A stretch of 32,000 nucleotides of DNA. Source: Alkanindiges sp. WGS2144. GTDB lineage: Bacteria; Pseudomonadota; Gammaproteobacteria; Pseudomonadales; Moraxellaceae. Location of the stretch: assembly GCF_043950625.1 (NCBI RefSeq), contig NZ_CP171007.1; one strand, 5' to 3'. Shown here piece after piece: positions 2,804 to 29,458 of this stretch (positions are counted from its first letter, which is position 1; the number at the start of each line of letters is the position of its first letter). A model generated the notes under the pieces. It had not been told where the DNA came from. It made no database searches and was given only the letters and a program-made list of their open reading frames with translations. Position numbers and translations under genes: made by a program.

Positions 2804-4006
2804 TTATTTCTTTTGCTGGTTTTTTAAATAGTCCTGAATGCTCATTGGTGCTGGTCGTGCTGCCGGGGCTGGTTGTGGCGCAGCAGCAGGTACTGCCGGG
2901 CTGGCAGTCGGTGCACGGCGGCTGATCGCTGGCGCATCATCTTCATCCTGCACAGGTGCTGCCGTTGCCTGATTTTGCTGAGTGGCAGCTACCGGTTGCT
3001 GCCGGGTAACCTGACCAGAAAAATCAATCGGGTCACGGGTCAGGCCGGTTGCAATGACGGTAACACGCAACTCATCACGTGCGTCCGGATCAAATACCGT
3101 ACCGTAGAAAATATCACCTTCATCCAGGTCGGCAATCTGGCTGACCACATCAGAGATTGCCTGAATTTCACGCGGCTTCACATCATCAGCACTGGTAATA
3201 TTGATCAGTACACCCTTGGCATTTTCCAGACGCACCTGATCCAGTAACGGACTACGAATCGCCTGCTCGGCGGCCTGACGGGCACGGTCTTCGCCACGCC
3301 CCATGCCAATCCCCATCATGGCATAACCACGAGTACTCATGGCAGTTTTCAGGTCGGCAAAGTCAAGGTTAATATGGCCATGATTCACCACCAGATCAAA
3401 AATACTGCGCACCGCATTAAGCAATACATCATCTGCCTTTTTAAAGGCTTCTTTCATGGATAAATCGCCGTATACCGTAAGCAGCTTTTCATTTGGAATA
3501 ATAATGAGGGAATCTACATGTTTTTCCAGCTCATCAATGCCTTTTTCGGCAGATTTCTGGCGCTTACGGCCCTCAAAGCCAAACGGCGTGGTCACCACAC
3601 CGACCGTCAGGATTCCCATTTCCTTGGCCACTTCAGCCACGACTGGCGCAGCGCCGGTACCCGTACCACCACCCATGCCGGCAGTCACAAACACCATATC
3701 GGTGCCTTCCAGTTGTTCACGGATCTGGTCACGGGCTTCTTCTGCCGAAGTACGTCCTACCTCCGGATTTGCACCAGCGCCCAGGCCGCGGGTACTTTGC
3801 TGACCCAGCTGCACGTTAAAGGGCGCTTTCATACGATCCAGTGCCTGCTTGTCAGTGTTGGCGCAAATAAACTTTACACCATTAATTTCTGACTCCACCA
3901 TGTGCTGCACGGCATTACCACCACCGCCACCCACACCAAAAACGGTAAAACGGGCCTGCCCATTGTTGTCGATTACTTCATCTTCAATTAGCGTAAATGA
4001 GGACAT
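2804..4006 (-). CDS. ftsZ: Cell division GTPase FtsZ
   Basis: 400 aa. It has the tubulin signature GGGTGTGAAPVVAE, the N-terminal GVGGGGGNAV motif, a Pro/Ala/Gln-rich linker and a conserved C-terminal peptide (SIQDYLKNQ). Confidence 0.97.
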   Translation of the reverse strand: MSSFTLIEDEVIDNNGQARFTVFGVGGGGGNAVQHMVESEINGVKFICANTDKQALDRMKAPFNVQLGQQSTRGLGAGANPEVGRTSAEEARDQIREQLEGTDMVFVTAGMGGGTGTGAAPVVAEVAKEMGILTVGVVTTPFGFEGRKRQKSAEKGIDELEKHVDSLIIIPNEKLLTVYGDLSMKEAFKKADDVLLNAVRSIFDLVVNHGHINLDFADLKTAMSTRGYAMMGIGMGRGEDRARQAAEQAIRSPLLDQVRLENAKGVLINITSADDVKPREIQAISDVVSQIADLDEGDIFYGTVFDPDARDELRVTVIATGLTRDPIDFSGQVTRQQPVAATQQNQATAAPVQDEDDAPAISRRAPTASPAVPAAAPQPAPAARPAPMSIQDYLKNQQKK

Positions 4007-12501: not shown

Positions 12502-13149
12502 TTAAACCCCATACTTCTCGCGATAATCCTGCATCCGCGCCAGATCATCACTCCGATTATTTTCCTTTAAATACTCCATCAAATCCTGCATAGTAATTAG
12601 CGCATGTACCGGAATCCTATACTGTTTTTCTACCTCCTGAATGGCTGACAGCTCACCCTTGCCTTTTTCCTGCCGATCCAGCGCCACGAGCACCCCAGCA
12701 ATGGTGGCACCTGCGTTTTGCAAAATATTCACCACTTCACGAATGGCCGTGCCAGCGGTAATTACATCATCCACAATCCACACCTGCTTACCTTTCACAT
12801 CTGCGCCTACCAGCATGCCGCCCTCACCATGATCCTTGGCTTCCTTGCGATTAAAACCCCACGGCACACTCACGCCATGTTGCTGCCATAATGCTGAAGC
12901 AGTTGCCGCAACAAACGGAATACCTTTATACGCTGGGCCAAAAATCACACTCACGCCCTCGCAGCGCATCAGCTTGTCGGCATAACCATTGGCCAGCAGT
13001 GATAACGCCTCACCATCGTTTAATAATCCGGCATTAAAAAAATAAGGGCTAACTCGACCAGATTTTAAAGTAAACTCCCCAAACTTGAGCACGCCACGTT
13101 TTAGTGCCAACTCAATTAAGGCTTGCGGGCTAAAGGGTTGAATCGACAT
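12502..13149 (-). CDS. pyrE: Orotate phosphoribosyltransferase
   Basis: 215 aa. [18 protein letters not shown] and the PRPP-binding motif [16 protein letters not shown] are present. Confidence 0.95.
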
Positions 13150-13265
13150 GGCGGTTTCCTGTTAAAACTGAGAGTTAAGGTAAATTAAGGCGCATGATAG
13201 CAAAGCATTTAAACCCAGGTGAGCCAAAAGTGAGTACTCAGCTAAAAATAAGTGCTGAGACAACA

Positions 13266-14048
13266 ATGCTTCGCGTGGTTTCCATTAACTTAAACGGCAT
13301 GCGTTCGGCGGCCAGCAAAGGGTTTTTTGACTGGCTGGAAACTTCGGGCGCTGACATTGTATGCATGCAGGAAACCCGAATCCAGCCGCATCAATGGCTG
13401 GATGAACACAAGCCCGAAGGTTGGCACATGCACCTGCATCCGGCGGAAAAGCCCGGTTATGCTGGCACGGCCATTTATAGCCGCCATCCATTTAGCGGTA
13501 TTAATACTGGCTTGGGCTTTGATATTTGTGATACACAAGGGCGGTTTACTACGGCCGAGTTTGAGACCAATGACGGTAAAAACTTTGTGGTGGCCTCCCT
13601 GTACTTGCCATCCGGTTCTAGTGGCGAAGATGCTCAGGCACGCAAGGATTTATTTTTACAAGAAATGCTGGTGCATTTAAGGCAATGGCGCGAGCAGGGC
13701 AAATCCATCATTATATGTGGTGATTACAACATCGTGCATAAAGAGATTGACATTAAAAACTGGAAAGGTAACCAGAAAAACTCCGGCGTGCTGCCACATG
13801 AGCGGGCTTGGCTGGATACCATTTATGATGCACTGGGCTATGTTGATGCGTTTCGGGTAAAAAACCAAAATGCGCATGAATATTCCTGGTGGTCGAACCG
13901 TGGTCAGGCCTGGGCAAAAAACGTCGGCTGGCGGATTGATTACCACGTAGTATCACCGGATTGGCATGATCGCATCGCTAACGTGAGTATTTACCGGGAT
14001 CAACGCTTTAGTGATCATGCACCGGTAATTATTGATTATTTGTTATAA
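13266..14048 (+). CDS. xthA: Exodeoxyribonuclease III (AP endonuclease family 1)
   Basis: From ORF 13194..14048, trimmed to the ATG at 13266. MLRVVSINLNGMRSA is the canonical family start. Also present are CMQETR, GDYNIVH and the C-terminal SDHAPV. Confidence 0.9.
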   Translation: MLRVVSINLNGMRSAASKGFFDWLETSGADIVCMQETRIQPHQWLDEHKPEGWHMHLHPAEKPGYAGTAIYSRHPFSGINTGLGFDICDTQGRFTTAEFETNDGKNFVVASLYLPSGSSGEDAQARKDLFLQEMLVHLRQWREQGKSIIICGDYNIVHKEIDIKNWKGNQKNSGVLPHERAWLDTIYDALGYVDAFRVKNQNAHEYSWWSNRGQAWAKNVGWRIDYHVVSPDWHDRIANVSIYRDQRFSDHAPVIIDYLL

Positions 14049-14080
14049 CCTGAGCAATAAAGCATGCTTATTTACATCTT

Positions 14081-14098
14081 GTAAGCTTAGGCTTACAA
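14081..14098. promoter_or_regulatory. GacA/UvrY-type upstream activating sequence (TGTAAG-N6-CTTACA)
   Basis: TGTAAGCTTAGGCTTACA is an exact match to both half-sites of the published GacA-box palindrome. It lies about 20 bp upstream of a sigma70-like -35 TTGCAA (14120-14125) and -10 CATTAT (14142-14147). Confidence 0.75.
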
Positions 14099-14151
14099 AG
14101 CGTGACGTTAATTTACTCTTTGCAAACAAACTGAAATATCGCATTATTCTC

Positions 14152-14311
14152 TTACGGCACAGGGAAGTCGGTCAGGATGACCAAAAGGGAAGGACTGCCG
14201 TAGGATGAAAAGGTATTGTAGTGTAGGACATTACAATATTGTATGGAAGCATGACAGGACGTTGCAATTGAGACCCGCACTATCAGGATGATATTAGTGC
14301 GGGTTTTCTCT
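14152..14311 (+). ncRNA. Csr/Rsm-family (RsmY/RsmZ/CsrB-like) CsrA/RsmA-sequestering small RNA; the 5' end is approximate
   Basis: There are nine GGA triplets in about 126 nt (starting at 14163, 14175, 14188, 14192, 14203, 14226, 14245, 14257 and 14286), mostly in an A(N)GGA context. Three of them sit in hairpin loops: GGUC-AGGAU-GACC (14170-14182); a 9-10 bp stem at 14214-14238 with loop UAGGA; and the terminator loop. An outer stem forms at 14153-14159/14196-14202. The segment has no credible ORF, follows the GacA box and promoter, and ends in an intrinsic terminator. Confidence 0.72.
14274..14310 (+). terminator. Intrinsic terminator of the Rsm-like sRNA
   Basis: A 9-bp stem CCCGCACTA (14274-14282) / TAGTGCGGG (14295-14303) has a loop containing AGGA and is followed by TTTTCTC. 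Confidence 0.8.
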
Positions 14312-14365: not shown

Positions 14366-14713
14366 ATGCTCAAAATTTATGGGATAAAAAACTGCAATAC
14401 CATGAAAAAAGCCTTTGATGCCTTAACCCAGCTCGGCTTGCCTTTTGAATTTCACGATTATAAAAAACAAGGTATTGATTTGGACACCTTACAGCACTGG
14501 GCGGATCAGGTTGGCCTTGATCTATTACTCAATAAAAAAGGAACCACCTGGTGTAAATTTAGCCCCGAACAGCAGGCAGACATTTTATCCAGTTCGGAAA
14601 ACACTTTACAGGCATTAAAAGATAACACCAGCATGATTAAGCGGCCGGTGTTGGTAAAAGATAAACAAATACTGGTGGGTTTTAATGAAGAGGCCTATAC
14701 CAAGCTGGCTTAA
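14366..14713 (+). CDS. yffB: ArsC-family (YffB-like) thioredoxin-fold protein
   Basis: 115 aa. MLKIYGIKNCNTMKKA...FHDYKK...LLNKKGTTW...MIKRPVL parallels E. coli YffB (TLYGIKNCDTIKKA...FHDYR...LLNTRGTTW...IIKRPLL). Confidence 0.85.
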   Translation: MLKIYGIKNCNTMKKAFDALTQLGLPFEFHDYKKQGIDLDTLQHWADQVGLDLLLNKKGTTWCKFSPEQQADILSSSENTLQALKDNTSMIKRPVLVKDKQILVGFNEEAYTKLA

Positions 14714-20703: not shown

Positions 20704-21369
20704 CTAGCGCAAAAAGCCATTGCTGGCTAGAAAATCCATATCAATACTGCTATTTTTGGCGGTGGCCTGTGCTGCCTTATCGTCCAGTAGTAAGCGCTCC
20801 AGATAACGTGCCAATACATCTACTTCCAGATTCACCTGAGTACCTACCTGCCAATCGCCAATGGTAGTGTGAGCCGCCGTATGCGGTACCAGATTCAGAC
20901 TAAACAGGGCACCATTTAAATGATTAATGGTCAGGCTAATGCCATCCACGGTAATGGAGCCTTTTTCAGCCAGATATTTAGCCAGTGCATCGGGTGCCCT
21001 GACTTCAAAATACAACGAGCGGGCATCTTTACGCGCCAGCATAATCTCGCCCAGGGCATCCACATGGCCACTGACCAGATGACCACCCAGCCGCGTCGTG
21101 GGCAACAGAGCTTTTTCCAGATTAACCCGGCTACCGGTTTTCCACTGCTTTAAGGTGCTACGGCTAATGGTTTCCAGAGACACATCCGCAGTGTACCAGC
21201 CCTTACCAAAATCAGTCACGGTCAGGCAAACCCCACTGGTGGCAATGGAATCGCCCAGCTTGACATCATCCATATCCAGAGTGCCCGCATCAATACGCAA
21301 ATGCACATCGCCTGCACTGTGCTGAATGGAGGCTACTTTTCCCACTGCTTCAATAATGCCCGTAAACAT
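20704..21369 (-). CDS. ribE: Riboflavin synthase (alpha chain)
   Basis: 221 aa. MFTGIIEAVGKV, the duplicated lumazine-binding repeats (GDSIATSGVCLTV / GSITVDGISLTI) and GGHLVSGHVD are present. The gene is called ribC in E. coli nomenclature. Confidence 0.95.
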   Translation of the reverse strand: MFTGIIEAVGKVASIQHSAGDVHLRIDAGTLDMDDVKLGDSIATSGVCLTVTDFGKGWYTADVSLETISRSTLKQWKTGSRVNLEKALLPTTRLGGHLVSGHVDALGEIMLARKDARSLYFEVRAPDALAKYLAEKGSITVDGISLTINHLNGALFSLNLVPHTAAHTTIGDWQVGTQVNLEVDVLARYLERLLLDDKAAQATAKNSSIDMDFLASNGFLR

Positions 21370-21450: not shown

Positions 21451-21771
21451 TTAACGCGCCGCCTGATTGCACTGAGCCAGCTCAGTCGATTTTGCCGGCC
21501 ACATCTTGCCAGCGCTATTTTTGTAATAACTGATTTTACCAACACGCATGACCAGGTTCTGGCAGGAATCCATGGACAAGTCATCACCCCAGGGGCCGGT
21601 CAGGCTACAGGCTTTGCCATTGCACTGCCAGCTAATTACCGGGCCGCCCTCAATGGGAACAGTTACCTTGCCTTGATGACTGCTGCCCGCTGTCCAGGTA
21701 GTGGCAAAACTAAACGATGACAGTAAAAGTAATCCAGTCAATAGGCCAGTCTTTTTCAGCTGCTTTTGCAT
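21451..21771 (-). CDS. Small secreted/periplasmic protein with four Cys, unknown function
   Basis: 106 aa. The signal peptide is MQKQLKKTGLLTGLLLLSSFSFA|TT. The mature part of about 83 aa has 4 Cys (WQCNGKAC...DSC...AQC). The SD AAGGA lies 6 nt upstream of the ATG. Confidence 0.7.
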   Translation of the reverse strand: MQKQLKKTGLLTGLLLLSSFSFATTWTAGSSHQGKVTVPIEGGPVISWQCNGKACSLTGPWGDDLSMDSCQNLVMRVGKISYYKNSAGKMWPAKSTELAQCNQAAR

Positions 21772-21917: not shown

Positions 21918-23210
21918 CTACCACAATGCCAGCTGGGTACTAGGGCCAGAAGTGTCTACCCCGCCAAGCTCGGCAAAATGGTACAACTGACCCAAAAGCT
22001 GGTTTAATGGCGGCCCGGACTTGGCTTGGGTATCAGTAATCACAATAAATTCAAGGGTACGCGCCCGCTCGGACTGGCGTTGTTTGCTTACGCGGTAACG
22101 TGGCACGTCCTGAGTTAATAAAGAAACCCGGCCACGCTCCAGATTGGCCTTAAGCAAGTCCTTGGGTGCAATATTGCCATCAGTGCTATAACTGGTAAGA
22201 ATAAAACGCGAATTAATGGTCGCCACCAGTTCCTGATAGGCTTCGGTGGCATATTTGGCGGAGTTATAGGGGCTGGGGCGTTCTTTACGCCATGCCCGAT
22301 CAATTCCGCTTTTATAGCCCGGTGTATCTGGCGTAGGCAAATCCACCTGATCCCACAAGGTTAGGGCATTTAGCACGTGATAATTACTGCTGTAGGCATG
22401 CTGGTTATAAGGCGGGTCAAGGTAGGTCACATCCACTTTAAATGAGGCCATTTGTTTTGCCAGATAGTGTGCGTCCACACACCACATTTCTGCGGCCAGC
22501 TGGTTCGGGTTGCCAATAGGACAAAATCGGCTGGGACTAAGCCACAGCAACGAATCAATCCGTTCCAGTGCCGTTTGGGTTCTGCCACCCCAGCCCTGAT
22601 GAAAACTCTTAAATACACCACTGGTGTTACTGACAAAGCTGGCCGAATATAAAAGCGGTGCCAACAGGGCGCTCATTTCAATGGGGTCGATCAAGCCCTG
22701 AAGCTGCCACTGGCTAATCTGGTTACGAATGGCATCAATGCGCATCCCATTACGGCGCTTAAAAAACAGGCGATCCAGCGCAGGATCATAATAGTCATCA
22801 TCTCGCGGGCACAGGTTACGGGTAACCCAGCCGGCCTGCTCCGGCAAGCTATTCAGCTGGTCGATAGCGGCCTGGTAACCACCCAGCCCGGCAAAATCAG
22901 GTGCCTCCACACAGGCCAAGAGCGCATGGTTCAGGGCATGACTATAAGGCTCCCAGTCATTGGCAATCACCCGGTAGCCATTTTGCCGGGCCAGCCGTGA
23001 CACCACCCCACTGCCGGCAAACAGGTCGGCAAAAATCGGTGCCTTTTTGCTTTTTTTATTGAGGGTGCCGGTTTGTTCCAGTGCAGCCAGAATCAGGTGA
23101 AGTAGACGACGCTTGTTGCCCAGATAAGGCACTAACTGATGAAACAGATAATCATCAGTGGTTCGCGCAGCGTGGCGACGCTTGTGATACACATTGACTT
23201 CAGTATTCAT
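21918..23210 (-). CDS. Site-specific DNA N6-adenine methyltransferase, alpha class (D12/Dam-like superfamily); no partner endonuclease in the window
   Basis: 430 aa. PYLGNKRRLL is at aa 28-37. The AdoMet motif I FADLFAGSGVV is at aa 60-70 and the catalytic motif IV DPPY at aa 265-268 (nt 22407-22418). Motif I upstream of motif IV with a long intervening region gives the alpha-class order. Confidence 0.85.
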   Translation of the reverse strand: MNTEVNVYHKRRHAARTTDDYLFHQLVPYLGNKRRLLHLILAALEQTGTLNKKSKKAPIFADLFAGSGVVSRLARQNGYRVIANDWEPYSHALNHALLACVEAPDFAGLGGYQAAIDQLNSLPEQAGWVTRNLCPRDDDYYDPALDRLFFKRRNGMRIDAIRNQISQWQLQGLIDPIEMSALLAPLLYSASFVSNTSGVFKSFHQGWGGRTQTALERIDSLLWLSPSRFCPIGNPNQLAAEMWCVDAHYLAKQMASFKVDVTYLDPPYNQHAYSSNYHVLNALTLWDQVDLPTPDTPGYKSGIDRAWRKERPSPYNSAKYATEAYQELVATINSRFILTSYSTDGNIAPKDLLKANLERGRVSLLTQDVPRYRVSKQRQSERARTLEFIVITDTQAKSGPPLNQLLGQLYHFAELGGVDTSGPSTQLALW

Positions 23211-23250: not shown

Positions 23251-24312
23251 TCAAACCTCAGGTTTCAGGATCAAACGAATATCCGCTCCAACCTGAGTAA
23301 GCCCCTGCAATTCTAACCGATATTGCTCGCACATTTGCGTCAAAGACAAATTAAACATGGGGCGAGCCTGACTGCCCAGCAAGGTAGGCGCCAGATACAC
23401 AATGAGCTCATCGACCAGATTTTGTCGCAGGAATTCTCCTGCCAGTGTCGGGCCTGCCTCCACCAGCACATCATAGACCTGTTTTTGTTGCTTGAGCTGA
23501 TCCAGAAGGCTGGCAAGGCTCATATCCGGCCAGTGCTCCACATGCGGAGCAATTTCTGGCAGCGTACCAACCAGAAGTAAATGCGCTGGTTGTTGCAGCA
23601 GTTGAGCCTCTAGCGGAAACCGGCTGTTACGATCCAGCACCACGCGCAGCGGCTGTACCACCTGCTCAACGGGGAAGTTGCCTGCTAACTGGCGTACATT
23701 TAAGGACGGATCATCAGCCAGCACAGTATTAATTCCCGTAATGACCGCACCACTCATAGCTCGCCAATGTTGTACGTCCAGCCGCGCCTCACTTCCAGTA
23801 ATCCACTTGGACTCACCAGAGGCCATTGCTGTACGTCCATCCAGACTGGCTGCCATTTTTAAGCGCACAAATGGCCTGCCACCTGCCATCACCTGCAAAA
23901 AACCCTTGTTTAAGGCTCGTGCCTCATGCTCCAGAACCCCTACTGTGGTGGCAATACCAGCCGCTTCCAGCATAGCTCTGCCCTGCCCGGCAACCAGAGG
24001 ATTGGGGTCGAGACTAGCCATCACTACCCGGCTGACACCTGCATCAATCAGCGCCTGGGCACAGGGCGGAGTTTTACCATAATGCGCACAGGGCTCTAAA
24101 GTGACATAAGCCGTGGCACCCCTGGCTGCTTCGCCGGCCTGTCTTAAGGCAAATACCTCAGCATGCGGCTGACCAGCCTGTGGATGAAACCCTTCACCTA
24201 TAACCCGTCCATCCTTAACGATCACACAGCCCACACACGGATTGGGACGCGTGCTGTATTGACCATGTCTGGCCAGTACTATGGCCTGCTGCATCAACTG
24301 CTGGTCATTCAT
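23251..24312 (-). CDS. ribD: Bifunctional diaminohydroxyphosphoribosylaminopyrimidine deaminase / 5-amino-6-(5-phosphoribosylamino)uracil reductase
   Basis: 353 aa. The CMP/dCMP deaminase zinc motifs (HAEVFAL ... TLEPCAHYGKTPPC) and the C-terminal reductase domain are present. The gene follows nrdR. Confidence 0.95.
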   Translation of the reverse strand: MNDQQLMQQAIVLARHGQYSTRPNPCVGCVIVKDGRVIGEGFHPQAGQPHAEVFALRQAGEAARGATAYVTLEPCAHYGKTPPCAQALIDAGVSRVVMASLDPNPLVAGQGRAMLEAAGIATTVGVLEHEARALNKGFLQVMAGGRPFVRLKMAASLDGRTAMASGESKWITGSEARLDVQHWRAMSGAVITGINTVLADDPSLNVRQLAGNFPVEQVVQPLRVVLDRNSRFPLEAQLLQQPAHLLLVGTLPEIAPHVEHWPDMSLASLLDQLKQQKQVYDVLVEAGPTLAGEFLRQNLVDELIVYLAPTLLGSQARPMFNLSLTQMCEQYRLELQGLTQVGADIRLILKPEV

Positions 24313-25874: not shown

Positions 25875-26660
25875 TTAGAATGCTTTACTTACACTCAACT
25901 GTAAACTGTTTTTACAGGTTTGCGCGTCAGCACAGCGACTGGTGCTTAAGGTATTACCCACCCAGGCCAGCTCCGCATTTAGACCCTGTACACCAAAAGT
26001 GGTGCCCAATTTATAGTCCGTATAGTGATCATCATTCCCGGTTGCATTTAAGGCACGGTTTAGCATACGGGCATTCTTAAACTGGTTATAGCCCAGGCTA
26101 GCCACCAACCCAAAGCCCGTCTCAGCCAGAGGCACGGCATAGCTGGCACTTAAATACCAAAAATCATCAGAATGCTGATAGTAACTACTGGAATAATTGA
26201 CTCCCAATCCCAGGGTATCGTTTGTAACCAGTGCCTGCGCAAAACCTAAACGAGCAAATAGCTCATTAAAATCTGGCTGATTACTGTCCACTGCGCTATT
26301 GCCCGAACCGGCAAAAATATAACGGATATACCCTACGTCCAGCCGGGATTCTACATTACGCAGCAAAGAAAGCCGGGTGGCATAGCCCAGTACTGCATCA
26401 AGCTCGGCACTACTTGGCTCACTCACGTTTGAACCCCATAGGCTGGCATACGCACCTGATTCATGGTTAAAGTTTATAGCACCCTGAATGGCCGGATTAT
26501 TACTGGTTCTGGAAACGCCACGAAAGCGGTAATCTGTACTAAGGCTAATATTTCCTGTGGTGCTAAGTCCTGGTAGTGTTAATACATCTGCCGCCTGCAC
26601 GGCCTGAGTAGTCAATATACCAACGCTGAGGAATGCCGCTGTTATTGTTAATGCTTTCAT
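25875..26660 (-). CDS. Outer-membrane beta-barrel protein, TorF/TIGR02001 (Gcw_chp)-like putative porin (paralogue 1)
   Basis: The ORF track starts at the TTG at 26672; I trimmed to the ATG at 26660. The signal peptide is MKALTITAAFLSVGILTTQAVQA|AD. It has the conserved TDYRFRGVS.TSNNPAIQG..N and a C-terminal aromatic residue (SVSKAF). It is clearly homologous to 28712..29458. Confidence 0.8.
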   Translation of the reverse strand: MKALTITAAFLSVGILTTQAVQAADVLTLPGLSTTGNISLSTDYRFRGVSRTSNNPAIQGAINFNHESGAYASLWGSNVSEPSSAELDAVLGYATRLSLLRNVESRLDVGYIRYIFAGSGNSAVDSNQPDFNELFARLGFAQALVTNDTLGLGVNYSSSYYQHSDDFWYLSASYAVPLAETGFGLVASLGYNQFKNARMLNRALNATGNDDHYTDYKLGTTFGVQGLNAELAWVGNTLSTSRCADAQTCKNSLQLSVSKAF

Positions 26661-26885
26661 TCTTGACCCCAAATCATTTAAGCTATTGTGCCTGTTATAA
26701 TGCCGCTGTTTTTATGCCCGGCATTACGGTGCCAGAATTGTATCAAAATGCAACAACAAAAAGAGGCGCAGTTTTTTATTTCTTCGTTTAAGCTTGGGCA
26801 GCAACATCAGCAATTATAAATATAGTATAACCTGCCTCAGCCATAAAAACGGCACACCGCCTTCACCAGGGAGTATCGATTTATC

Positions 26886-27168: not shown

Positions 27169-28644
27169 ATGTCATTTGCTGTAGTAACCTCACGGGCTGC
27201 GCTTGGTTTGCAGGCACCTGAAGTTCAGGTTGAGGTTCATTTAAGTCAGGGACTACCCGCCCTCACTATTGTTGGTTTGCCCGAGGCAGCCGTCAGAGAA
27301 AGTAAAGACCGGGTACGCTCAGCCATTATCAATAGTGGTTTTGAGTTTCCCAACCGGCGCTTAACCATTAATCTGGCACCTGCTGACTTGCCCAAAGAGG
27401 GGGCTCGTCTCGACTTGCCTATTGCTTTGGGTATTTTGGCGGCCAGCGGACAATTACGGCCAGATGACCTGCAAGACAAGGAGTTTGTTGGCGAGTTGGC
27501 GCTAAATGGTGACTTGAGGCCAATCCTGGGTGTGCTGGCAGTCGCGCGAGCCAGCCATTTGGCTAAACGGCCATTGCTGGTGCCTCAGGCCAATGGTCAT
27601 GAGGCTGCTAAAATCCCCAATGCCCAGATATATGCTGCTGGCACCCTAAAGCAGATTTGTGCCCATCTGCAACACACAGAACGCCTGCCACAGGTGAGCT
27701 ACCAACCGGAATCCCTGCAAGCCAACCTGCCGGACATGGCGGATGTCAAAGGGCAACATCGTGCCCGTCGTGCGCTGGAGATTGCTGCGGCCGGTAGTCA
27801 CTCGCTATTGTTTTCCGGTTCACCGGGTACTGGCAAAACCCTGCTGGCCTCACGCCTGCCCGGTATTTTGCCACCATTGACTGATGAGGAAAATCTGGAA
27901 GTCGCTAGTGTTTATTCCATTGCCAATCAGCCAATTCAATTTGGCGAGCGGCCTTTTCGCGCCCCGCATCATACTGCATCTGCCGTGGCATTGGTGGGCG
28001 GTGGCTCACAACCCCGGCCCGGCGAGATTAGTCTGGCACACCACGGCGTATTATTTCTGGACGAGTTACCCGAATTTGACCGTAAGGTACTAGAGGTATT
28101 GCGCCAGCCGCTGGAATCGCGTCAAGTGGTCATTTCACGTGCGGCCCGGCAGCTTAGCTTTCCCGCCAACTTCCAGTTAATTGCTGCCATGAATCCCTGT
28201 CCCTGTGGCTATGCTACCGATCCAGCCCATCGCTGTAAATGCACACCGGATATGGTAAGTCGCTACCGTGGGCGCCTGTCAGGCCCTTTAATGGATCGTA
28301 TTGACCTGCATATTGAAGTACCTGCCCTGCCAGTGGCTGATCTGCAAGCCAAAGCCTGTGGAGAAAGCTCTGCCACGATTCGCGAGCGGGTCATTGCAGC
28401 ACGGCAGCGACAGATTAAACGGCAAGGCCTAGCCAATGCTGACTTGGCACCGCAGCAACTGGAGCAATTTGCCAGCCTGGGAGGCGCTGAACAGCAGATT
28501 ATTGCCATGGCTCAGCAGCGCTTAAACCTGTCAGCCCGTGCTTATCACCGGGTATTACGGGTTGCCCGTACCATTGCTGATCTGGCTGGTGCGGAACAGA
28601 TCGGCAGTAGTCATCTAACCGAAGCACTTAGCTATCGTGGCTAA
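27169..28644 (+). CDS. comM: YifB/ComM family Mg-chelatase-like AAA+ ATPase
   Basis: 491 aa. It has an N-terminal Lon-protease-like domain, Walker A GSPGTGKT, Walker B GVLFLDELPEF, and the C-terminal SARAYHRVLRVARTIADL. Confidence 0.93.
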   Translation: MSFAVVTSRAALGLQAPEVQVEVHLSQGLPALTIVGLPEAAVRESKDRVRSAIINSGFEFPNRRLTINLAPADLPKEGARLDLPIALGILAASGQLRPDDLQDKEFVGELALNGDLRPILGVLAVARASHLAKRPLLVPQANGHEAAKIPNAQIYAAGTLKQICAHLQHTERLPQVSYQPESLQANLPDMADVKGQHRARRALEIAAAGSHSLLFSGSPGTGKTLLASRLPGILPPLTDEENLEVASVYSIANQPIQFGERPFRAPHHTASAVALVGGGSQPRPGEISLAHHGVLFLDELPEFDRKVLEVLRQPLESRQVVISRAARQLSFPANFQLIAAMNPCPCGYATDPAHRCKCTPDMVSRYRGRLSGPLMDRIDLHIEVPALPVADLQAKACGESSATIRERVIAARQRQIKRQGLANADLAPQQLEQFASLGGAEQQIIAMAQQRLNLSARAYHRVLRVARTIADLAGAEQIGSSHLTEALSYRG

Positions 28645-28711: not shown

Positions 28712-29458
28712 TTAAAAGAATTTACTTAAGCTAAAGACCACGCCATTGTCATAATCTTTTGCCCCACCATTAATTGTCGTGCCAATCCAGGACAGTTCTG
28801 CAGTCAGGCCCTGTATACCAAAGGTTGTGCCCAGCTTGTAGTCAACATAAGTGTCTTCTTCGCCGTCACCACCAGACGCCGTTGCCATAACTGCTTCATG
28901 CTTGAACTTGTTGTAGCCTACGCTGGCGACCACACCAAAGCCCGTATCAGCTAGGGGTACCGCATAACTGGCACTGAGATACCAAAAGTGATCCGTTTGT
29001 GCAAAATAATCCGGTGAATAATTGACAGCACCTGTCAGACTATCATCCTTCATCAATAAGCCGGAATAACTCAGCTTGCCAAAAAATTCATTAAAATCAG
29101 GTTGTGGCGATCCACTGCCTTCATAGCCATAACGAATATAGCCGACATCCAGCGTCGTGGCATCATTTAGCGCAGTGGCAAAACCCAAGGTGGCATCACC
29201 TTCAATACTACCTGCAAAACTTACATTAGAACCCCACAAGCTTAAATACACGCCTGAATCATGCTTAAAGTTAATACCACCCTGAATAGCCGGGTTATTG
29301 CTGGTTTGTGAAACACCGCGAAAACGGTAATCAGTGGCCAAGGTGACATTGCCTGTTGTGGTAATCCCCGGAATATTGATGACATCAGCTGCAAATGCAC
29401 CATCCATTGCGCCTAATAAAGCCATTGCAGCAACTACAGTTTTTAAAGTAAGTTTCAT
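28712..29458 (-). CDS. Outer-membrane beta-barrel protein, TorF/TIGR02001 (Gcw_chp)-like putative porin (paralogue 2)
   Basis: 248 aa. The signal peptide is MKLTLKTVVAAMALLGAMDGAFA|AD. It shares TDYRFRGVSQTSNNPAIQGGINF, FWYLSASYAVPLADTGFG and YKLGTTFGIQGLTAEL with the 25875..26660 protein, and ends in Phe. Confidence 0.85.
   Translation of the reverse strand: MKLTLKTVVAAMALLGAMDGAFAADVINIPGITTTGNVTLATDYRFRGVSQTSNNPAIQGGINFKHDSGVYLSLWGSNVSFAGSIEGDATLGFATALNDATTLDVGYIRYGYEGSGSPQPDFNEFFGKLSYSGLLMKDDSLTGAVNYSPDYFAQTDHFWYLSASYAVPLADTGFGVVASVGYNKFKHEAVMATASGGDGEEDTYVDYKLGTTFGIQGLTAELSWIGTTINGGAKDYDNGVVFSLSKFF

Follow-up and report, generated by a model that had tools for sequence, protein, structure and literature searches.

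We analysed a 32,000-nucleotide stretch of contig NZ_CP171007.1 from Alkanindiges sp. WGS2144 (the window, meaning this stretch at its full length) and propose that the 317-bp gap between xth, an exodeoxyribonuclease III gene, and an ArsC-family reductase gene probably contains an independently transcribed gene for a ~156-nt Csr/Rsm-type sponge RNA, which would be activated by GacA/UvrY and would sequester CsrA. A small RNA (sRNA) of this family had been suggested here by an earlier sequence-only reading, and our analysis supports the suggestion. We used the five sequence criteria of Kulkarni et al. 2006 (PMC1488887) for CsrA-regulating sRNAs, and the element shows all five of these features: it is intergenic, it is dense in A(N)GGA motifs, it ends in a terminator, its GGA motifs occupy loops or free stretches, and it has an upstream site of the GacA/UvrY type. 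In addition, its helices covary among relatives, conservation extends to eight of its nine GGA sites, and it has a counterpart in sRNA2 of Acinetobacter baumannii AB5075.

Sequence, fold and conservation of the element

The nine GGA triplets start at 14163, 14175, 14188, 14192, 14203, 14226, 14245, 14257 and 14286, and all nine stand in A(N)GGA context, where the sequence-only reading had said that most did. Base composition predicts 2.1 triplets per 156 nt, which agrees with the earlier estimate of about two, and the plus strand of the window averages 1.46; the sRNA segment is the sole plus-strand stretch with at least seven per 156 nt. Folding of 14152-14311, which had been proposed as a check, gives -47.3 kcal/mol (z = -3.2 versus shuffles), with a mean unpaired probability of 0.58-1.0 for all nine triplets. 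The three hairpins said to carry GGA in their loops (SL1, SL2 and the terminator) are found where they had been placed, and the terminator is confirmed as a stem-loop followed by a U-tract. Helix P1 (14155-14200) encloses SL1 together with single-stranded AGGGA, AGGGA and AAGGA motifs (Table 1). As had been claimed, the gap holds no credible open reading frame (ORF), and 40 relatives share no conserved reading frame on either strand, on which ground a coding reading was rejected.

Relatives were collected in two ways. When metagenomes were scanned with a DNA pattern of the 5' core, 115 stretches were obtained, from which five chance matches (L099, L134, L141, L154 and L184), lacking both a terminator and any family resemblance downstream, were discarded; about 80 distinct elements remained, in Acinetobacter and other Moraxellaceae and mostly in the xth/ArsC gap. 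A scan of a genome collection by xth alignment contributed at least five Moraxellaceae loci among the 80 matches listed, and look-ups of individual xth proteins supplemented it. Contigs with the closest xth proteins (78-84% identical) keep the gshB-pyrE/xth/ArsC order with the element 3' of xth, where it is also present in A. calcoaceticus, A. ihumii, an Acinetobacter metagenome-assembled genome (MAG) and an A. johnsonii-type contig. No copy was found 3' of xth in A. marinus, A. puyangensis, the Moraxellaceae MAG L088 or Moraxella lacunata, nor at the 75 non-Moraxellaceae loci among the matches listed.

A non-redundant MAFFT alignment of 40 sequences underlies the identity, GGA and covariation figures. 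In it the window RNA is 62-88% identical to other members, and 40/40 sequences have eight of the nine GGA sites at fixed positions, two of the eight being set by the retrieval pattern and six being independent of it; the same sites recur in seven loci that were retrieved via xth alone. The proposal had been made to depend on conservation of the box and of the GGA pattern in related genomes, and both are conserved, the box in the window's own clade. Mean unpaired probability across the 40 members is 0.78 for GGA and 0.42 for all trinucleotides. With a consensus structure derived from this same alignment, standard pairs occupy 99.5% of cells and changes on both sides occur in 38 cells versus 11.4 in shuffles, none of 500 shuffles being as high; as a control, sliding the 3' partners by 1-3 columns lowers pairing to 35-49% of cells. 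Three pairs of the terminator stem show compensatory changes, in 1, 9 and 12 of the 40 sequences. SL2 could not be aligned, and a hairpin of differing sequence is present in all 29 members with an extractable segment.

Covariance models agree with this picture. The model built from the whole set (R1) has a single match in the window, with 139.7 bits, and the model built from 28 Acinetobacter-type sequences, the window's clade left out (R2), recovers 14154-14311 at full length with 112 bits and E = 2.3e-25 and has no other match in the window below E = 0.1.

Table 1. Features of the xth/ArsC gap and the two flanking genes (positions in the window).
Feature	Position	Strand	Basis and remarks
GacA/UvrY-type activating palindrome TGTAAGCTTAGGCTTACA	14080-14097	.	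Direct reading; centre ~65 bp 5' of the inferred RNA start
Conserved spacer motif TGACGTTAATTTAC	14103-14116	+	Interval from box to -35; kept in L081-L083
-35-like hexamer TTGCAA	14120-14125	+	Direct reading; weakly conserved
-10 hexamer CATTAT	14142-14147	+	GCATTAT kept at -13 to -7 in both family clades
Predicted sRNA, 156-158 nt	14154-14311	+	Covariance models R1 and R2; 5' end inferred; end near 14309-14311
Helix P1	CGGC 14155-14158 with GCCG 14197-14200	+	RNAalifold consensus; invariant
Hairpin SL1, GGUC-AGGAU-GACC	14170-14182	+	Closing pair covaries (UA:18, GC:14, AU:2)
Hairpin SL2, 10-13 bp stem, UAGGA loop	14212-14240	+	Sequence variable, hairpin kept
Intrinsic terminator	14270-14311	+	Stem 14273-14282/14295-14304, 10 bp, G+C-rich; 12-nt loop AUC-AGGAU-GAU; tail UUUUCUCU
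xth, exodeoxyribonuclease III	13194-14048	+	NCBIfam TIGR00633, 231 bits; homologs 62-87% identical
ArsC-family reductase (YffB-like)	14366-14713	+	NCBIfam PRK10853, TIGR01617

The upstream box and the promoter

Both half-sites of the upstream palindrome match TGTAAG-N6-CTTACA exactly, as the sequence-only reading had stated, but the interval that it gave, 14081-14098, is shifted by one nucleotide. The perfect pattern occurs once in the 32 kb, the search for further boxes that had been recommended finding none within the window, and 0/100 dinucleotide-preserving shuffles yield one. When two mismatches are tolerated the pattern occurs twice versus 1.45 expected, which is not unusual, and it is therefore the perfect match that carries the weight.

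Upstream regions of relatives were compared ungapped, with positions counted relative to the conserved ACGGC. In most of 19 distinct regions from the window's clade the box takes the form TGTAAG-N6-C[GT]TACA at -74 (-73 in a few copies), and a few copies have a weaker box that matches at 7-9 of 12 positions. Three features make up the consensus of the 19: TGTAAGCC.AAGC.TACA (-74 to -57), a brief CT motif around -37 and, at -13 to -7, GCAT.AT; the remainder is largely unconserved. Paralogous and tandem copies in this clade, with flanks that are otherwise unrelated, have the -74 box as well. L002, a MAG from a more distant Moraxellaceae lineage, carries TGTCAGTAATTTCTTACA, an 11/12 match, 76 nt 5' of a weak homolog (28 bits), which suggests that the full box is the ancestral state. 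Across 79 distinct upstream regions of the Acinetobacter clade, the -10 is equally conserved and the right half-site, (C)TTACA or CCTACA, alone is kept at the box position.

Two further motifs were noted in these upstream regions. At the place of TGACGTTAATTTAC, Acinetobacter has TG[TA]CG and then a T-rich tract; the TGACGTTAATTTAC motif may be a second-factor site or a bend. Nearly all Acinetobacter-type loci also carry, directly after the xth stop codon and at about -95 from the sRNA start, a palindrome AGTGAACAnnTGTTCACT (L001 ~3289-3306), whose compensatory variants are GTGTACA/TGTACAC and GTAAACA/TGTTTAC. The window lacks this palindrome, which could be a hairpin that terminates xth or a GAAC-N4-GTTC-type site for a regulator.

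The -35 and -10 hexamers lie at the positions that had been claimed for them, separated by a 16-nt spacer, and together fit 8 of the 12 positions of the sigma-70 consensus; weak conservation of the -35 is expected for an activator-dependent promoter. The RNA likely starts at A14154, given the onset of conservation, the position of the -10 and the C-A-C context.

We infer GacA binding, the exact 5' end, and CsrA binding with its stoichiometry from these features, and propose the following course of events. A phosphorylated regulator of the GacA/UvrY family would bind the 18-bp palindrome, centred ~65 bp 5' of the start, and would thereby switch on a weak sigma-70 promoter (TTGCAA, 16 nt, CATTAT). 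The transcript would begin near A14154 and end at the stem-loop and U-tract near 14309-14311. It would present nine A(N)GGA motifs, three in loops (SL1, SL2 and the terminator) and six in single-stranded linkers, with two of the putative CsrA sites taking the form of the hairpin motif UCAGGAUGA (SL1 and the terminator loop). Each RNA molecule could thus hold several CsrA/RsmA dimers and withhold them from mRNA targets, so that CsrA control would be relieved.

Genomic setting and rival explanations

The arrangement pyrE <-> xth - sRNA - ArsC-family gene is kept in the close relatives L081-L083, and each of the 95 Acinetobacter-type metagenome loci is flanked by xth upstream, by ArsC downstream or by both. 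In the window's clade xth lies upstream at six loci and not at nine. The distance from terminator to ArsC is ~55 nt in the window and up to ~260 nt or more elsewhere, and in one relative a 73-aa ORF with no Pfam match (L083:4152-4373) is inserted between the two. At three loci of the window's clade there are two sRNA copies ~320 nt apart. Duplicate copies, tandem or nearby, were seen at L102 (444-600 and 765-922), L105 (2984 and 3305), L202 (660-817 and 996-1152) and L182 (7162-7318 and 4715-4871); a GacA-type box is recognisable at most duplicated copies, its right half being degraded at the downstream copy of tandem pairs. Other copies lie 3' of a tail-specific protease gene (L115), 3' of 7TMR-DISM GGDEF genes (L161 and L182), between BLUF sensor and methyltransferase genes (L204; the L096 contig stops short of the BLUF side) and next to a radical-SAM gene (L137). 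Because the spacing to ArsC varies, an ORF has been inserted in L083 and paralogs exist without ArsC, we take the element to be a free-standing gene and not a leader or 3' untranslated region (UTR). Further copies may exist in the window's genome. The sequence-only reading had called the locus the output node of the GacS/GacA cascade; since paralogs with this box occur in related genomes, both in tandem and dispersed, it is probably one of several GacA outputs, and the wording of a sole node was overstated.

A role in cis, whether as leader or attenuator for the ArsC-family gene or as 3' UTR of xth, would suit an element that lies between two co-oriented genes and whose terminator in the window stands ~55 nt before the ArsC start codon. 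We regard it as barely credible: besides the variable distance to ArsC and the ORF inserted in L083, the element has a conserved -10 and an upstream box of its own, copies occur as tandem repeats and where both xth and ArsC are missing, and a discrete 157-nt sRNA is annotated in AB5075. The leader and 3' UTR readings were rejected on the variable spacing and the paralogs. It is also very improbable that the RNA acts as an Hfq-type base-pairing sRNA whose GGA triplets are incidental, or serve as anti-Shine-Dalgarno seeds, and which is no protein sponge. Such an RNA could bind Hfq by its standard terminator, and sRNA2-mRNA chimeras were recovered by proximity ligation in AB5075 (Hamrock et al. 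2024), in the non-induced control only; their authors put these chimeras down to abundance, however, and the main text of the Hfq RIL-seq paper makes no mention of sRNA2. Eight conserved GGA sites and two looped UCAGGAUGA motifs are, moreover, the signature of a CsrA ligand and not of a single seed. A functional link to Crc and Hfq was considered since the xth neighbour is the gene named crc in the Acinetobacter literature; it was dropped because conservation falls on GGA motifs and not on the A-rich motifs of Hfq/Crc, and because the A-rich stretch in Acinetobacter is a paired arm of SL2.

A different question is what drives transcription. The RNA could be a CsrA sponge that is not, or not mainly, GacA-driven, with another regulator acting on the palindrome or with a largely constitutive promoter. 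Acinetobacter orthologs have only the right half-site, (C)TTACA or CCTACA, and still the ortholog in AB5075 ranks among the most abundant transcripts; the copy in A. baylyi ADP1 has no upstream site (Kulkarni et al., PMC1488887); and RsmV and RsmW of Pseudomonas are GacA-independent (PMC7911923). In the window, however, the box is perfect, and it is held at a fixed distance throughout the clade, paralogs included. In P. brassicacearum an upstream activating sequence (UAS) whose left half is degenerate, TATAGCGAAACGCTTACA, still depends exclusively on GacA (PMC7911923), and the Acinetobacter half-site is therefore compatible with GacA control. On balance we consider transcription that bypasses GacA unlikely.

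Several results weigh against a GacA-activated CsrA sponge and have to be set beside the evidence for it. The GGA enrichment is less striking when the element's own dinucleotides are shuffled, which gives a mean of 5.2 triplets, not about two, and reaches nine in 71 of 5000 shuffles; the element is purine-rich and the enrichment in this single sequence is thus moderate, so that conservation is the strong evidence. The left half of the box has been lost in Acinetobacter proper, and GacA control is therefore no universal trait of the sRNA family. Generic scans reported neither the -35/-10 pair, since its 8/12 fit falls below the 9/12 cut-off, nor the terminator, since its 12-nt loop exceeds the 8-nt limit. 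The Rfam test that had been recommended was negative: at gathering thresholds Rfam 15 has no match in the whole window or in four related loci, and none of the RsmX, RsmY, PrrB_RsmZ, CsrB and CsrC models (clan CL00106) reaches its gathering score. In E-value mode the best Csr/Rsm hit is rsmX with 12.3 bits and E = 6.7 versus a gathering score of 56, and the CsrB (RF00018) and CsrC (RF00084) models have no match in the window at E up to 10. A search for csrA, gacA and gacS, likewise recommended, found none in the 32-kb window, and these partners are therefore assumed from the phylogenetic position of the family. The evidence for expression comes from the relative AB5075, and the proximity-ligation (Hi-GRIL-seq) study of Hamrock et al. 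2024 gave sRNA2 no function. In favour of the sponge reading, three CsrA sponges of A. baumannii, CsrB, CsrC and CsrD, are credited to Singh et al. 2025 in the summary given by PMC13516227, and CsrB is enriched by CsrA RNA immunoprecipitation with quantitative PCR (PMC13643297); sRNA2 is a candidate for one of the three.

Some other Rfam matches were dismissed. Two weak CRISPR-DR matches on the minus strand (14221-14250) are the reverse complement of SL2, and a Bacillaceae-1 match is due to chance.

Of the two flanking genes, xth probably starts 3' of 13194, and its best named homologs, in Acinetobacter and Moraxella, are 68% identical (the window has ~49% G+C); an exact-match look-up of the ArsC-family protein returned no record. 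One gene upstream of the putative sponge RNA, the 3' coding end of pyrE holds the only other place in the window with at least seven GGA per 156 nt (12527-12682, minus strand, ten triplets). On the sense strand these triplets stem from the codon pairs Q-D, Q-E, K-E and M-E, and the cluster is probably due to chance. The gshB-pyrE gap, short in the window, contains a PIN/MazE toxin-antitoxin pair in L081 and L082 (1561-2255) and an AAA_15/SMC_N ATPase gene with a 190-aa partner in L084 (425-2253), and appears to be a small insertion hot spot. Further along the window, the interval from a riboflavin synthase-like gene (20704-21369) to ribD (23251-24312) holds a D12-class N6-adenine DNA methyltransferase gene (21918-23210) and an unassigned 106-aa ORF (21451-21771), both on the minus strand, an arrangement that looks like an insertion in the rib/nrdR cluster. 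Two paralogous Gcw_chp-family genes (25875-26672 and 28712-29458, minus strand) flank a Mg-chelatase-like gene of the YifB/ComM type (27169-28644).

Comparison with known CsrA-titrating RNAs

The nearest known RNA is sRNA2 of A. baumannii AB5075, which in the Kröger/Hamrock annotation spans 154783-154939 on the minus strand (157 nt). A distance of 204 nt separates it from ABUW_RS00695, a 351-nt arsenate reductase gene that follows it on this strand, and the mean of 85,045 transcripts per million for the sRNA is the second-highest in the expression table (Hamrock et al. 2024, PMC11472050 and its supplement). It occupies the same gap 5' of a 116-aa ArsC-family gene, in the same orientation and at nearly the same length (157 versus 156-158 nt), and its geometry agrees with that of the A. 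calcoaceticus copy. The match to the window RNA is drawn from this position and from the copies in A. calcoaceticus and other Acinetobacter, which are 62-69% identical to the window RNA and yield the R2 model that scores it at 112 bits. The two types differ in that the window's lineage has the full GacA palindrome and Acinetobacter the half-site, with a different palindrome ~21 bp further 5'; the GGA loop on SL2 is seen in the window's clade only, and the third motif is AUGGAAG in the window versus CAAGGAUG.

An older record comes from A. baylyi ADP1, for which Table 2 of Kulkarni et al. 2006 (PMC1488887) lists 'rsmB', a CsrA-binding sRNA predicted in the crc/ACIAD3528 gap. Like the window element it lies 3' of an xth-like gene (by synteny, ADP1 crc is the putative ortholog of the window xth), with the same gene order and the orientation -> -> ->, and it was likewise recognised by AGGA density, a terminator and GGA in loops. 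Unlike the window copy with its perfect box, it has no upstream site, for which reason it was listed as an additional prediction (PMC1488887). The 2006 prediction, the abundant AB5075 sRNA2 and the window locus are thus joined as apparently one RNA family, for which we supply a covariance model. The family is missing from Rfam, and protein-centred and Rfam-based annotation therefore keeps overlooking this sRNA.

The locus is a further member, in an uncharacterised Moraxellaceae lineage, of a known kind of regulator whose Acinetobacter counterpart has already been detected experimentally, and it reveals no new mechanism. What it offers is a testable entry to the GacS/GacA-CsrA circuit of this genome, a circuit that in A. 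baumannii bears on metabolism, desiccation tolerance and the virulence switch, and a contrast between the full GacA box of its lineage and the half-site of Acinetobacter. We tentatively raise the possibility, although we hold it to be rather doubtful, that the window RNA is an ancestral member of a Moraxellaceae-specific sponge family outside Rfam within which control has been rewired. In such a history the window's lineage and the distant MAG would have kept the box and multiplied the gene (in tandem, and near prc, GGDEF cyclase and BLUF genes), and Acinetobacter, with a single copy, would have lost the left half-site and gained the AGTGAACAnnTGTTCACT palindrome. If this were true, AGTGAACAnnTGTTCACT might bring in a different regulator for an RNA that has come to rank with the most abundant in the Acinetobacter cell.

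Outside the family, the element resembles the Pseudomonas RNAs RsmX, RsmY and RsmZ (RF02144, RF00195 and RF00166) in several respects. It falls in the same size class (~110-160 nt), its GGA motifs are placed in hairpin loops and linkers with one in the terminator loop, its box has the same form as their UAS, which in rsmY is TGTAAGCATTCTCTTACA (PMC4353343), and its tandem duplication recalls rsmX-1/rsmX-2 (PMC7911923). It differs from them in helix layout and genomic context and shares no significant similarity in sequence or structure, the best score being the 12.3 bits mentioned above. Since no Rfam Csr/Rsm model matches, we would place it in the functional class of the Csr/Rsm RNAs but not within RsmX, RsmY, RsmZ, CsrB or CsrC. 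With CsrB and CsrC of E. coli it would share a logic, that of a BarA/UvrY-activated RNA which titrates CsrA through many GGA sites. The E. coli RNAs are far longer (~245-370 nt) and have many more sites. Finally, UCAGGAUGA, the motif that SL1 and the terminator loop of the window RNA have in common, resembles RUACARGGAUGU, reportedly the consensus of high-affinity CsrA ligands obtained by Dubey et al. in 2005.

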